Virus record (IMG/VR): IMGVR_UViG_2537561830_000002
Origin: a virus
Lineage: Duplodnaviria > Heunggongvirae > Uroviricota > Caudoviricetes
Direction: 5' to 3' (one strand)
DNA: 52,488 bases
In this document: positions 9,015-38,895 of the stretch, in pieces
Layout of the letters: each line of letters begins with the position of its first letter
Position numbering within the stretch: position 1 is the first letter of the stretch
Made by a program: the position numbers and the translations under genes
The notes under the pieces: model-generated
Databases searched by the model: none
The model's input: the letters and a program-made list of their open reading frames with translations, nothing else
Told to the model about the DNA's origin: nothing

Positions 9015-9503
9015 ATGAGTCTTTTGAATGAAGTTCAGAAATTCATTGAAGCCCATCCGGGGTGTACTTCCGGAGACATTGCGGATGCTTTTGCTGGTTA
9101 CTCACGGCAGCGCGTTCTGCAGTCAGCAAGCAAGTTACGTCAGAGTGGGCGTGTGGCTCACCGTTGTGAAGGGGATACACGCAGACATTTCCCGCGCCTG
9201 ACTGAGAGAGCGCAGGATCCGGAACCACAACCAGTTCGTGAAACCAGACCTGTGCGCAATTTCTATGTCGGCACTAACGACCCGCGGGTGATTTTGTGCC
9301 TGACCCGCCAGGCGGAAGAACTGGAGTCCAGGGGCTTATACCGTCGTGCTGCAACGGTGTGGATGGCGGCATTCCGTGAAAGCCACTCCCAGCCAGAACG
9401 AAACAATTTTCTGGCGCGTCGTGAACGGTGTTTACGGAAAAGCAGTAAGCGGGCTGCATCAGGTGAAGAGTGGTATCTCTCAGGGAATTACGTGGGGGCT
9501 TAA
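9015..9503 (+). CDS. hypothetical DNA-binding/regulatory protein (163 aa)
   Basis: ATG just after the O-like stop; N-terminal winged-helix-like segment; arginine-rich C-terminus; family uncertain. Confidence 0.5.
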   Translation: MSLLNEVQKFIEAHPGCTSGDIADAFAGYSRQRVLQSASKLRQSGRVAHRCEGDTRRHFPRLTERAQDPEPQPVRETRPVRNFYVGTNDPRVILCLTRQAEELESRGLYRRAATVWMAAFRESHSQPERNNFLARRERCLRKSSKRAASGEEWYLSGNYVGA

Positions 9504-10156
9504 TGAGTAATAAATATTGCCAGGCGCTGGTGGAACTGCGGAACAAACCAGCCCATGAACTGAAGGAAGTGGGCGATCAGTGGCGCACGCCGGACAACAT
9601 TTTCTGGGGAATTAACACCCTGTTTGGCCCGTTTGTTCTGGATCTGTTCACTGACGGTGATAACGCCAAATGTGCTGCGTATTACACGGCGGAAGACAAC
9701 GCGCTGGCGCATGACTGGTCAGAACGCCTTGCGGAGCTTAAAGGTGCTGCCTTTGGTAATCCCCCATACAGCCGCGCCAGTCAGCATGAGGGGCAATACA
9801 TCACCGGCATGCGTTACATCATGAAGCATGCCAGTGCCATGCGTGATAAAGGCGGGCGCTATGTTTTCCTGATCAAAGCTGCCACCAGCGAAGTGTGGTG
9901 GCCGGAAGATGCAGATCATATTGCTTTTATTCGCGGGCGTATTGGTTTTGAACTGCCTGCCTGGTTTATCCCGAAGGATGAGAAGCAGGTGCCGACAGGC
10001 GCTTTCTTCGCTGGTGCTATTGCTGTTTTCGACAAGACCTGGAAGGGACCGGCAATCAGCTACATCGGGCGCGATGAACTTGAGGCATGTGGTGAGGCCT
10101 TTCTGGCGCAGGTTCGCCATCAGGCAGAAAAACTGGTCAGGGAGATGGCGGCATGA
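9503..10156 (+). CDS. orphan phage DNA N6-adenine methyltransferase
   Basis: FGNPPYS catalytic motif; TAATG overlap with the upstream gene; no partner endonuclease nearby. Confidence 0.85.
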   Translation: MSNKYCQALVELRNKPAHELKEVGDQWRTPDNIFWGINTLFGPFVLDLFTDGDNAKCAAYYTAEDNALAHDWSERLAELKGAAFGNPPYSRASQHEGQYITGMRYIMKHASAMRDKGGRYVFLIKAATSEVWWPEDADHIAFIRGRIGFELPAWFIPKDEKQVPTGAFFAGAIAVFDKTWKGPAISYIGRDELEACGEAFLAQVRHQAEKLVREMAA

Positions 10157-12679: not shown

Positions 12680-12697
12680 TTTTTTCGGAGAAAGTTG

Positions 12698-13084
12698 ATG
12701 CGTAATATACAGATGATCCTTGAACGTTGGGGGGCATGGGCAGCGAGTGATAGCTCAGGAGTTGACTATTCGTCTATAGCTGCTGGGTTTAAGGGGCTTC
12801 TTCCATATACCAGAAAGACACGTCTAGCTTGTTCAGATAGTGATGCATTAATTATTGAAGGTAGCCTTGCTCTTCTTAAGAAGAGAAAACCGTACGAACA
12901 TTCTTTGATTGTGGCTCATTACCTGTATGGCATCTCGAAAAGAAAGATCGCAAAGGCACGTAATAAAGACGAAAAATTGATACGTATCGAGATACAGGTT
13001 GCTGAAGGTTTTATCGATGGCTGCCTAAGTATGCTGGATGTGAAACTTGAAATGGATGACTACTCTGAGTCTCCTGTAGCATGA
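12698..13084 (+). CDS. late-gene antiterminator Q (P22 gene 23 type)
   Basis: MRNIQMILERWGAWAA...SIAAGFKGLL matches the P22 gp23 family from memory; GGAGAAAG RBS. Confidence 0.8.
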   Translation: MRNIQMILERWGAWAASDSSGVDYSSIAAGFKGLLPYTRKTRLACSDSDALIIEGSLALLKKRKPYEHSLIVAHYLYGISKRKIAKARNKDEKLIRIEIQVAEGFIDGCLSMLDVKLEMDDYSESPVA

Positions 13085-13695
13085 AATAATGAAACGACCA
13101 TATGTCTTACATAATATGGTTGATTTGTAGCTGGATGCAATGTTGTACTCATGAATCGCAAGGGATTATCCTCGTCGGTTGTAATTTTTGCATCAGCTAC
13201 TTCCTGCTGAAGATGCTTTCGCCAGTCATCAAGTCTCTCGCCAGATTTCTTAATTTTACAGTAAATGATAATGCCACCATGGTTGTCACGCGCAGTGCCT
13301 GTGCCATATCGCTCGTTGAGCTGGTTCCATCCACCTAAGATGTACGCAGGACCTTTCCATAATTTAGCTTCGCCAATCCATGCAAATCGGCCGAGCTGAT
13401 GTTTAACTAATATATCTATATGCCCTCCATGCTGAGTGTCATGTTCAGCGTCATAATTACGGCCTTTCAAAAAAGCAATAATAACTGATGTGAGCTCATC
13501 TTCACCCCACTGCTGTGTTTGATACATATGTTTTTGGGTTTCCAAAACATACATCGCGTCATCAAGGTCAACGTAAAGTTGCTTCACGAAATCGTCGTGA
13601 CTTGCTGCAAATTTTCGCTTAAGAAAACCAGACAATTCAGGGTCAAATTGACTTAAGGTGTCTAATTGGGCAAGGTTGAAATTACATTCACTCAT
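13060..13695 (-). CDS. cassette gene C: hypothetical protein with PD-(D/E)xK-like nuclease motif (211 aa)
   Basis: Motif E84..D94 (GGHIDILV)..E109-A-K111 (WIGEAKLW); strong GGAGG RBS; AT-rich; 3' end overlaps the Q 3' end convergently by 25 nt. Confidence 0.7.
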   Translation of the reverse strand: MSECNFNLAQLDTLSQFDPELSGFLKRKFAASHDDFVKQLYVDLDDAMYVLETQKHMYQTQQWGEDELTSVIIAFLKGRNYDAEHDTQHGGHIDILVKHQLGRFAWIGEAKLWKGPAYILGGWNQLNERYGTGTARDNHGGIIIYCKIKKSGERLDDWRKHLQQEVADAKITTDEDNPLRFMSTTLHPATNQPYYVRHMVVSLFHATGDSE

Positions 13696-14110
13696 GTAAT
13701 TCCTCCAAAGCCTCAGTAGGAGTGAAGTATGGGAACAAATAATGATTATAATTATCGACTAATTGACCACTGTAAGGATGATAAAACTTACCTGTATGAA
13801 GCGCATGAGACACGTCATCATCATCGACGGGAATAGGATCACTATCGTCAGACTCGATATACTGGAAATGCATATCTAGCAAGTGCATTCTGTTGCTCGA
13901 AAGATAGTCAGTTACTTTGATCAGTAAAACTTTGGCATCGTTATTTTGCACATCAAGCTTAGTACCATTAACCAAACTTACATATGTTATGTGTTTCAGT
14001 GACTTAGCTTCTTTGCTGGTTAAAAAATCAACCACAACACGACATAAATCTCCAACCGGCCCATGTAGGTCGTGGTTGATTTTCGAGTATATGTCGTGTT
14101 TAGTTAACAT
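13688..14110 (-). CDS. cassette gene B: hypothetical protein (140 aa)
   Basis: ATG at 14108-14110 (the track ORF starts on TTG at 14116); stop overlaps gene C start by 8 nt; acidic stretch DSDPIPVDDDD; no motif recognised. Confidence 0.65.
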   Translation of the reverse strand: MLTKHDIYSKINHDLHGPVGDLCRVVVDFLTSKEAKSLKHITYVSLVNGTKLDVQNNDAKVLLIKVTDYLSSNRMHLLDMHFQYIESDDSDPIPVDDDDVSHALHTGKFYHPYSGQLVDNYNHYLFPYFTPTEALEELHE

Positions 14111-14120
14111 AATCAACTCT

Positions 14121-15218
14121 TTATGCAGCCTCGTCAGTGGCTCGCTTTCTCTGTATGCTTGATAGTGACTCTAACATCTTGTTGATTACAAACAAAATAT
14201 GCTCAATTGAGGAGCAACGATCTATGATTGCATCATAAAGGTGACTGTTCGGTTTATCAATCATAGCCCGTTTACCTGGCAGTATTAATTCTACAGGGAA
14301 AACTTGAGAAGCTGAATCAGTCAGATCCCAAATTTTACCGAGTTTGTATTTCGTTAGTATGGGACTTGCCTCTTCGCCCCCATGATGGTAGCTGTCTGAG
14401 CGCAAGCAGCTTTCACCCGGACGGAGTTTTAATGAGCTGGTGTTTCCATCTGATGTAAGAAATGACATCTGCGAGATTCTACCATCTGTTTGCTCGTACA
14501 TTTCTTGTACTAATCCAAAGAGGTCAATGGGCGCAGGTAAAGTCAAACCAGTAGTAGTTCTAATAAACTGATCAAGCAAAAATTGCTGTCGTTCCGACTC
14601 TGAACGAGGCATCACAGATAAATCAACAGTGAGCGCAAGTAAATGCAACTCGGGTAGAATCATTATTGTATTAAAGCACTGTGTAACTTCACGTGTTTTA
14701 CATTTGATTTCACCACCATTGGAGCGAAGAGCTAGCCCAGCATCGCTTAAATGGGTCGCGTCGAGTTCAATAGTTTCTGTGTAGTATGCTTTCGACGTAA
14801 GAATCGTTGTTTCTAAAGAAACTTTGTTTACGACAGAAAATGTAGTTTCTAAAAAATGAAGATCTGTATCAGCTGCAAGCAACACATCTTTAGGCAAAGG
14901 ATATGGATAGCTTTCGCAAAAAACGGATTCGTCTCTTTCTAGGGCATTTATATTCTCCCGTAGAGTTTGCACTTCTTCCGGTTCTAACTTATACAGCTTA
15001 ACTAAACGGGTCCCACTCAATAGTAAATTTTGCCATACTTCACCTATATGAGTACTTACAGCTTCCTGATCTACATCTTCTGTTGCTTGGAGCCTCGCGA
15101 TAAATGGGTCAAGGCCAACTGATGTGACACCAAGTGGTTCCCCCACAATTTTTTTTGTGAGCTTCCATCCAACACGTTCGGTGATATCTCTTAAAAGGTT
15201 GATCGTTTGCTCATTCAT
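14121..15218 (-). CDS. cassette gene A: hypothetical protein (365 aa)
   Basis: ATG at 15216-15218 (the track ORF starts on TTG at 15260); 10-nt gap to gene B; no Walker or other motif recognised; AT-rich. Confidence 0.7.
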   Translation of the reverse strand: MNEQTINLLRDITERVGWKLTKKIVGEPLGVTSVGLDPFIARLQATEDVDQEAVSTHIGEVWQNLLLSGTRLVKLYKLEPEEVQTLRENINALERDESVFCESYPYPLPKDVLLAADTDLHFLETTFSVVNKVSLETTILTSKAYYTETIELDATHLSDAGLALRSNGGEIKCKTREVTQCFNTIMILPELHLLALTVDLSVMPRSESERQQFLLDQFIRTTTGLTLPAPIDLFGLVQEMYEQTDGRISQMSFLTSDGNTSSLKLRPGESCLRSDSYHHGGEEASPILTKYKLGKIWDLTDSASQVFPVELILPGKRAMIDKPNSHLYDAIIDRCSSIEHILFVINKMLESLSSIQRKRATDEAA

Positions 15219-15299
15219 AAGAAACCCTTTTTTGTATTTTTTTGTACTTTTTGAAGGCAATTTAGATAGTCCTTAACATACTAAATTAACGAACATATT

Positions 15300-15340
15300 T
15301 CATTAGCACGGTCCGCAAAAAGTGATGTATCATGTTAAGA
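15300..15340 (+). promoter_or_regulatory. candidate late promoter pR' / Q utilisation region
   Basis: -35-like TTAGCA and -10-like TATCAT upstream of a short-transcript terminator, as in lambdoid late regions; weak. Confidence 0.3.
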
Positions 15341-15363
15341 GTGGTTACTTCGCCACACAACTT

Positions 15364-15387
15364 AAACCCGCCGTCGAGCGGGTTTTG
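15364..15387 (+). terminator. rho-independent terminator (tR'-like) upstream of the holin gene
   Basis: aaacccgc-cgtcga-gcgggttttg: GC stem plus T-run on the plus strand. Confidence 0.55.
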
Positions 15388-15536
15388 TCATTTCTAGGCC
15401 TTGGTATTCGTTGGGCTTGGTCTATCTGGTACTTATCCATTGGCTCGACTTCTTTTACGTTTCCGCTTCTGATTTGCGGTACATGATGTTCCCTCAATTT
15501 GCACCTCCTGTATTGCGAGGTGAGAGATAACTACAA

Positions 15537-15863
15537 ATGCCTCATAACCCAAATACCTGGCTGGACTTGGTCCAGAGCTGGTGGCGTGGAGACACACCGC
15601 TGGGTGCAGTGATTATGTCGATCGTTATGGCTGGTTTGCGCATCGCCTATTTTGGCGGTGGTGGTGGCTGGAAGCGAAAAACGCTCGAGATTTTGCTATG
15701 TGGCGCTCTGACGCTGACCTTTGCATCCGCTCTTGAGTATGTCGGATGGCCTAAATCGCTTTCTGTTGCCATTGGTGGTGGCGTGGGGCTGATCGGTGTC
15801 GATGCTATTCGTGGGGCTGCAATGCGAGTAATCGGTAACAAATTTGGTAGCTCGAAGGAGTAA
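15537..15863 (+). CDS. holin (108 aa)
   Basis: Three hydrophobic segments with Gly-rich turns; directly upstream of the endolysin gene. Confidence 0.8.
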   Translation: MPHNPNTWLDLVQSWWRGDTPLGAVIMSIVMAGLRIAYFGGGGGWKRKTLEILLCGALTLTFASALEYVGWPKSLSVAIGGGVGLIGVDAIRGAAMRVIGNKFGSSKE

Positions 15864-16832: not shown

Positions 16833-17126
16833 TTATTGTGAGCAATACACCCGCGCTTCCAGCGGAGTATAAATGCCTAAAGTAATAAAACCGAGCAATC
16901 CATTTACGAATGTTTGCTGGGTTTCTGTTTTAACCACATTTTCTGCGCCGCCACAAATTTTGGCTGCATCAACAGTTTTCTCCTGTCCAATTCCCGAAAC
17001 GAAGAAATGATGGGTGATGGTTTCCTTTGGTGTTACTGCTGTCGGTTTGTTTCCAACAGTAAACGTCTGTTGAGCACATCCTGTAATAAGCATTGCCAGA
17101 GCGGCAGAAAACAACATTTTTTTCAT
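16833..17126 (-). CDS. bor: Bor lipoprotein (lysogenic conversion)
   Basis: MKKMLFSAALAMLITGC... near-identical to lambda Bor; lipobox LITGC; AGGA RBS. Confidence 0.9.
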   Translation of the reverse strand: MKKMLFSAALAMLITGCAQQTFTVGNKPTAVTPKETITHHFFVSGIGQEKTVDAAKICGGAENVVKTETQQTFVNGLLGFITLGIYTPLEARVYCSQ

Positions 17127-17509
17127 CTTATTATCCTGCATTGTTAAAAACGGCAGAATCCTATGTGACAACAATTAAACGATAGTTAAATGGATTGATG
17201 AAAATTAAAACTATATAGGTGTACGGTCAGACTATTGGAGGTAGTCAGGATTTGAATGTCAGTCTGTTGTCGGCATTCTGGCAATGCAATTTGGATAAAG
17301 CGGGGATTAAAAAGATAGAGGCGAGCCGGTCAGGTAGAAATGAATCAGGCTCAAAGTGAAGCGGAAAAGGTCTGTGGTACAAGCTGATGCAGCCATAATT
17401 ACAGCCTGATGATTTGTGGAATGAAACATGTTGAACCTCCTTAATTGATGTTATTCGAGTGATGAAGGCATTCTGTCCTTCTATAGTGTCCAGTAAATCA
17501 AACAGGAAA

Positions 17510-38025: not shown

Positions 38026-38895
<870 letters not shown>

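Follow-up and report, generated by a model that had tools for sequence, protein, structure and literature searches.

The 52,488-nucleotide (nt) stretch of DNA analysed here, referred to throughout as the window (IMG/VR record IMGVR_UViG_2537561830_000002, Caudoviricetes), carries a cassette of three co-oriented genes in the order A-B-C, and our subject is the last of these, gene C, together with the nuclease motif that an earlier note had picked out in it. Gene C (13060..13695, minus strand) encodes a predicted PD-(D/E)xK nuclease of 211 amino acids, equal to WP_001557682.1, gene B (13688..14110, minus strand) encodes a protein of 140 amino acids (WP_021552536.1; isoelectric point (pI) 5.3, net charge approximately −10) and gene A (14121..15218, minus strand) encodes a protein of 365 amino acids (WP_001532221.1; pI 5.0). 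All three proteins are acidic and soluble, and gene B, at its stop, runs 8 nt into the start of gene C. By string comparison, A, B and C are 100% identical, with no sequence differences and in the same gene order, to the proteins listed in Table S8 for the system DS-21, working identifier TOXO (DeWeirdt et al., DefensePredictor, Science 2026; PMC13092281), in which gene C is protein 3. Because the three proteins are identical to those of a published system already annotated as PDDEXK, gene C, its partners, the PD-(D/E)xK label and the anti-phage activity are known as DS-21, and the finding is correct, but not new. What is added here is conservation at the level of single residues (E65 and Q125, with E84 corrected) and the size of the family, as well as three features that the account of DS-21 in PMC13092281 does not contain, namely the RdgC-like fold predicted for protein 1, the fusions to NACHT-HEAT proteins and the gap between the Q and holin genes of the prophage as an exchange slot.

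The earlier note had read codons 84–111 of gene C (13363..13446, minus strand) as a catalytic signature. On re-translation this segment, which spans core strands 1–3 of the model described below, reads EHDTQHGGHIDILVKHQLGRFAWIGEAK, exactly as the note had spelled it. D94 (codon 13414-13416, minus strand) lies within the hydrophobic HIDILV, and E109-A-K111 (E109 codon 13369-13371, K111 codon 13363-13365, both minus strand) is found 15 residues downstream, as claimed. A loose form of the pattern, D-hh-x8-20-h-E-x-K, occurred twice in the 24,256 amino acids of six-frame open reading frames (ORFs) of at least 100 amino acids in the window, so that the pattern alone is weak evidence, and it is the conservation and the fold that raise the gene C motif beyond chance.

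In Enterobacterales, Vibrionaceae and metagenomes, a word-indexed search returned 46 homologues of gene C with identities between 35% and 100%. Aligning 41 homologues of at least 36% identity showed D94, E109 and K111 to be invariant, and E65, D66, D86, G90, G91, H92, W106, G108 and Q125 likewise. An exhaustive profile search extended the family to 815 cluster representatives (E ≤1e-3; 285 of them reaching E ≤1e-30), and conservation was then scored in a set of 148 sequences, made up of gene C and the best 147 of these 815 representatives, most of them ~27–43% identical to gene C. The three residues named in the earlier note, D94, E109 and K111, were each conserved in 100% of this set, as were E65 (codon 13501-13503, minus strand) and Q125 (codon 13321-13323, minus strand); D86 was only partly kept (D in 109 of 148). 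In an alignment of 101 sequences, with 26–43% identity to gene C, the only invariant residues were E65, G91, D94, E109, K111, Q125 and Y130, of which Q125 and Y130 lie on the helix after strand 3. The residue proposed at first as the acidic member of the site, E84, did not hold up, its column being variable in the 148 sequences (T 38, S 38, E 21, D 9, N 6). In a typical PD-(D/E)xK site the first helix supplies an acidic residue, strand 2 the D and strand 3 the ExK. As E65 is invariant and the E84 column variable, E65, on the first core helix, replaces E84 as the upstream acidic residue. The site predicted for gene C from these sequences is E65...D94...E109-x-K111...Q125, an assignment made because these residues are invariant across the family alignments.

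We also built an AlphaFold2 model of gene C from the 41-sequence alignment, which had a mean predicted local distance difference test score (pLDDT) of 91.3 and a predicted template modelling score (pTM) of 0.88. The model consists of a helix (65-78), three strands (82-87, 93-98 and 105-112), a second helix (116-130) and a further strand (139-146), which is the alpha-beta-beta-beta-alpha-beta core of the PD-(D/E)xK superfamily and the structure for which the earlier note had suggested looking. D94 is on strand 2 and E109 and K111 are on strand 3, with E65 on the first core helix; the catalytic D and the (D/E)xK motif, both retained in homologues, thus occupy the strands expected for the superfamily. 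Neither of the outcomes that the earlier note had named as refuting its reading, variation of the three residues among homologues or a predicted structure lacking this core, was seen. The PD-(D/E)xK reading of gene C stands as far as the fold and D94, E109 and K111 are concerned, and gives way at the first acidic residue, which is E65 and not E84. Alignments and model together support the flagged motif as a real, strictly conserved predicted active site of a restriction-enzyme-type nuclease, indicating that a motif spotted by eye can mark a true nuclease active site, and the five invariant residues E65, D94, E109, K111 and Q125 offer mechanistic handles for DS-21.

The BASEL collection phages Bas1 and Bas11 belong to the T1-like Drexlerviridae. 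In Escherichia coli MG1655, DS-21 lowered plating by 4.48 log10 for Bas1 and by 2.0 log10 for Bas11, with small-plaque effects only (<1 log10) for Bas3, Bas9, Bas67 and T3 (PMC13092281). The system, from contig NZ_QOXJ01000032.1 (7805-9963) of an E. coli natural isolate, is listed in Table S6 as a ‘Predicted novel defense gene’ with defensive = TRUE, and is marked as replicated (PMC13092281). In Table S8 of the same paper, protein 3 is annotated as PDDEXK (HHpred match to PF18742, DpnII-MboI, residues 37-160, probability 0.96). Protein 2 is assigned to DUF5939 (0.94), its residues 21-73 being called a winged helix (0.8), and for protein 1 the table gives a HeH/SAP motif at 16-48 (probability 0.64). 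The HHblits comparison in the paper also relates protein 3 to the LmuA_effector_PDDEXK profile (probability 94.7, coverage 0.55). Among the catalytic pairs listed in Table S8, ExK 109-111 with D 94 is the only one that fits gene C (PMC13092281). In the text version of the sheet hhpred_domains of that table, the entries under ‘EXK position’ and ‘D position’ do not line up with the rows: the pair 109-111 / 94 stands on the PDX1 row, and positions 412-414 are given for a protein of 332 amino acids and 346-348 for one of 280. The main text reports PD-(D/E)XK domains in 13 of 31 further systems, with 14 such proteins aligning with the EcoRI catalytic core, and contains no discussion or mechanism of DS-21 (PMC13092281). 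Main-text literature searches by PDC-S54 and by the accessions returned nothing, the accessions appearing only in the supplementary tables of PMC13092281, and a preprint dealing with modularity networks of defence had no bearing on these genes.

For partner A, sequence and profile searches of Pfam, NCBIfam and PDB gave no usable match and Foldseek against PDB no informative one. It is predicted to have an N-terminal helical part resembling HeH/SAP, followed by an alpha/beta body resembling RdgC and Iml3, which would liken it by fold to RdgC and lambda RexA (the RdgC/RexA/Iml3 fold), and A is probably an RdgC-like protein, predicted to bind DNA. The DNA-binding KwaB protein of Kiwa was considered as a relative of A and dropped, RdgC being absent from the Kiwa paper. 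For B, neither hmmscan against Pfam nor a PDB sequence search found anything, and the protein has no hydrophobic segment, its highest 19-residue hydropathy of 0.6 not being that of a membrane segment. Members of its family, conserved as far as 31% identity, share the invariant motif G-x-F-Y-H-P-x-x-G. No enzymatic domain is recognizable in A or B. Upstream of gene A our promoter scan found no sigma-70 consensus site, and over the whole scan there were 3 sites against 7.0 expected; as there is no consensus site and fewer sites than chance would give, no cassette promoter is claimed. Two overlapping sigma-70-like matches at 14232-14288 (minus strand), in the 3′ end of gene A and ~120-170 nt upstream of B, could be an internal promoter for B and C, but with the scan total below chance they are not evidence of one.

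The three genes also travel together outside this prophage. Homologues of A, B and C have consecutive locus tags in Erwinia and Cronobacter, and the A-B-C order with the B/C overlap is kept in Vibrio harveyi, Yersinia, Enterobacter, an Alteromonadaceae genome and several metagenomes. These triads occur in different phage backgrounds and in non-phage settings, one of them (L013) adjoining uvrB and mreB. At a locus where C is ~30% identical, hhalign still ties the upstream genes to A (70%) and B (92%), and at another (L014) the first position is held by a 245-amino-acid protein unrelated to A. A locus search with alignment A1 gave only 3 loci among species-representative genomes.

In addition, several family representatives are proteins of 855-1226 amino acids that end in the gene C domain (last 170-190 residues, E 1e-40 to 1e-50) and otherwise consist of a NACHT nucleoside triphosphatase (NTPase) and HEAT repeats. 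NACHT and HEAT proteins ending in this domain are P0107, P0140, P0150, P0170, P0171, P0192 and P0194, and P0117 has HEAT repeats and the domain without NACHT. In Avs-type proteins effectors are usually N-terminal, unlike the C-terminal effector of these fusions. The PADLOC profile PDC-S54, a defence candidate, matched 29 of 101 gene C family members (best E 1.4e-10) and gene C itself at E 7e-6, residues 253-368 of PDC-S54 corresponding to 46-165 of gene C. These data are evidence that the gene C nuclease is a portable immune effector, which is also wired to NACHT-HEAT proteins.

PDC-S54 is a single protein of 410 amino acids with an extra N-terminal part, whereas gene C has 211, and Lamassu requires the SMC-type ATPase LmuB, whereas A and B have neither an ATPase domain nor a PADLOC match; the ties of gene C to PDC-S54 and to Lamassu LmuA are a shared domain and not membership of the system. 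The type II enzymes BamHI, BglII, BstYI and OkrAI (1bam, 1d2i, 1sdo, 3odh) are 6-9% identical to gene C, which, unlike them, is partnered with two non-enzymatic proteins. BamHI, moreover, has ExE where gene C has ExK. No methyltransferase domain of the kind that a type II restriction-modification system would need was found in A, B or C, the Dam-family gene of the window lying 3 kb away in the early region. Gene C has neither the DUF4263 nuclease domain of the single-gene Shedu system (SduA) nor the four-cysteine iron-sulfur cluster that surrounds the nuclease core in Cas4 and the RecB family. RexAB has a membrane-spanning RexB-type partner, and B is without a membrane segment. In the NACHT-HEAT proteins of the STAND class (Avs/bNACHT-like) the nuclease is fused, whereas in DS-21 it stands alone with no NTPase in the cassette, and the role of the STAND protein would therefore fall to A and B.

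On this evidence gene C is most probably a small stand-alone PD-(D/E)xK nuclease that acts as the effector of the prophage-borne three-gene anti-phage system DS-21. E65 (helix 1), D94 (strand 2), E109-x-K111 (strand 3) and Q125 (helix 2) would form the metal-binding, catalytic site, and C would cut DNA in a Mg2+-dependent manner once infection is sensed, under the control of its acidic partners. A, in which an RdgC-like body would carry a SAP/HeH-like head, may bind DNA as a sensor or clamp, and B may act as a winged-helix/DUF5939 adaptor or inhibitor that is translationally coupled to C; the role of inhibitor would fit B because of this coupling and its acidity. Infection would end either with the phage DNA selectively destroyed or with the infected cell killed in an abortive response.

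Several observations weigh against this interpretation. Searches of Pfam, NCBIfam and PDB sequences with gene C and with profiles of its family found no significant relative, and the superfamily placement consequently depends on the structure prediction, on the motif and on the more sensitive HHpred search of PMC13092281. In keeping with this, hmmscan of gene C against Pfam came back empty even with a cutoff of E 1, the Pfam gathering thresholds of Mrr_cat (PF04471), PDDEXK_9 and DpnII-MboI (PF18742) were not reached, only 1-3 of 101 relatives gave sub-threshold matches to Mrr_cat or PDDEXK_9, and a PHROGs search matched solely families of ‘unknown function’. The protection recorded in the screen is narrow, covering two T1-like phages with small-plaque effects on four others, and the same paper holds neither a catalytic mutant of DS-21, all 19 of 19 ‘TOXO’ plaque-table entries being wild-type screen rows, nor activity data that would give biochemical evidence of a nuclease (PMC13092281). 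Finally, tRNases, namely the CdiA-CT structures 4zqu and 4g6v, and not DNases only, are among the structural neighbours of gene C, so that DNA is a probable rather than a certain substrate of C.

A more specific proposal for how the system might work, which we put forward tentatively and consider rather improbable as it stands, is that DS-21 is a nuclease-armed counterpart of Rex-type exclusion. A, as a ring or clamp of the RdgC/RexA fold with a SAP-like head, would then load onto intermediates of phage replication or recombination, or onto DNA ends as they enter, and the winged-helix protein B would relay the signal by freeing a nuclease C that is otherwise restrained. If this were true, the nuclease module would be interchangeable with the NTPase-driven sensing of NACHT-HEAT proteins in other bacteria, and A would represent a new class of sensor for a family of effectors which numbers more than 800 clusters and lies outside all curated domain databases.

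Three other explanations are less likely than that of C as the DNA-cutting effector of a defence system. The tRNase neighbours would suit a C that has the PD-(D/E)xK fold but acts on RNA such as tRNA, blocking translation in the manner of some CdiA-CT toxins that share the fold, and we regard this as unlikely. Slightly less likely again is that the cassette is mainly a toxin-antitoxin module for addiction to, or stabilization of, the prophage, with C as toxin, B as antitoxin and protection as a by-product. The 8-nt B/C overlap, the small and acidic B and the mobile, low-GC nature of the cargo all speak for such a module, whereas defence was measured directly and marked as replicated (PMC13092281), triads are also found at non-phage chromosomal sites such as that beside uvrB and mreB, and the nuclease domain is fused to NACHT-HEAT proteins of immune type. 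A conserved third gene of 365 amino acids would, moreover, be unexpected in a simple toxin-antitoxin pair. Toxin-antitoxin-like control of C within a defence system is compatible with the effector role preferred here. That C is instead a catalytically dead domain serving as a nucleic-acid-binding sensor, with the effector elsewhere, is very improbable: inactive PD-(D/E)xK domains do occur in other proteins and the activity of C is predicted rather than measured, but full retention of the catalytic positions across 148 sequences down to ~27% identity is the signature of an active site, A and B offer no alternative enzyme, and in the NACHT-HEAT fusions the gene C domain is the only part beyond the NTPase and the repeats.

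The cassette is carried by an e14-family prophage beside icd, the window opening with the icd ORF followed by an integrase-sized ORF, and it lies antisense between the gene for the antiterminator Q (12695..13084, plus strand) and that for a lambda-family holin (15537..15863, plus strand), the latter with a conserved leader upstream. Homology to prophages with other cargo stops at 13056 and restarts at 15300-15302, delimiting an exchangeable cassette (13057..15299) whose place before the late leader and after Q is taken by different cargo in related prophages and which has a guanine-plus-cytosine (GC) content of 40% against 52-53% in the flanks. Q and gene C converge and share 25 nt at their 3′ ends (13060-13084), and the C-terminus of Q is unlike that of sister prophages (129 amino acids against 121-122) because its last 28 nt (13057-13084) are cassette DNA. 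In only 12 of 5426 complete E. coli genomes does this slot hold A-B-C, and sister E. coli prophages have other antisense two-gene cargos there. Two examples are L007 (1999-3411; proteins of 313 and 149 amino acids) and L008 (1984-3372; a DUF6731 protein of 313 amino acids and one of 147), neither of which has a PADLOC match and which may be further defence candidates; as distant relatives of A and B they were rejected, with hhalign probability below 1%. The gap between Q and holin in e14-type prophages is thus an exchange slot for antisense cargo, and a place where further systems may turn up.

Some other features of the prophage were noted. The holin leader (15300-15536) contains a terminator-like GC hairpin at 15364-15385 (plus strand) followed by a T-run, which may be the tR′-type terminator of the late operon. 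Between PerC-like and LexA-like genes lies the Dam-family N6-adenine methyltransferase ORF (9470-10156, plus strand; Pfam Dam, E 1e-45; NPPY motif), which the prophage of E. coli A17, otherwise collinear, lacks at that place. A Bor lipoprotein gene (16833-17174, minus strand; Pfam Lambda_Bor, E 1e-30) lies antisense just past the lysis genes in a segment that also differs from strain A17. Beside the pin invertase gene, an ORF of 274 amino acids (38026-38850, minus strand) has a LEM-3-like GIY-YIG nuclease domain (E 2e-14) and occupies roughly the place that mcrA has in strain A17. The region appears to be a second slot for cargo, here filled by another kind of nuclease.
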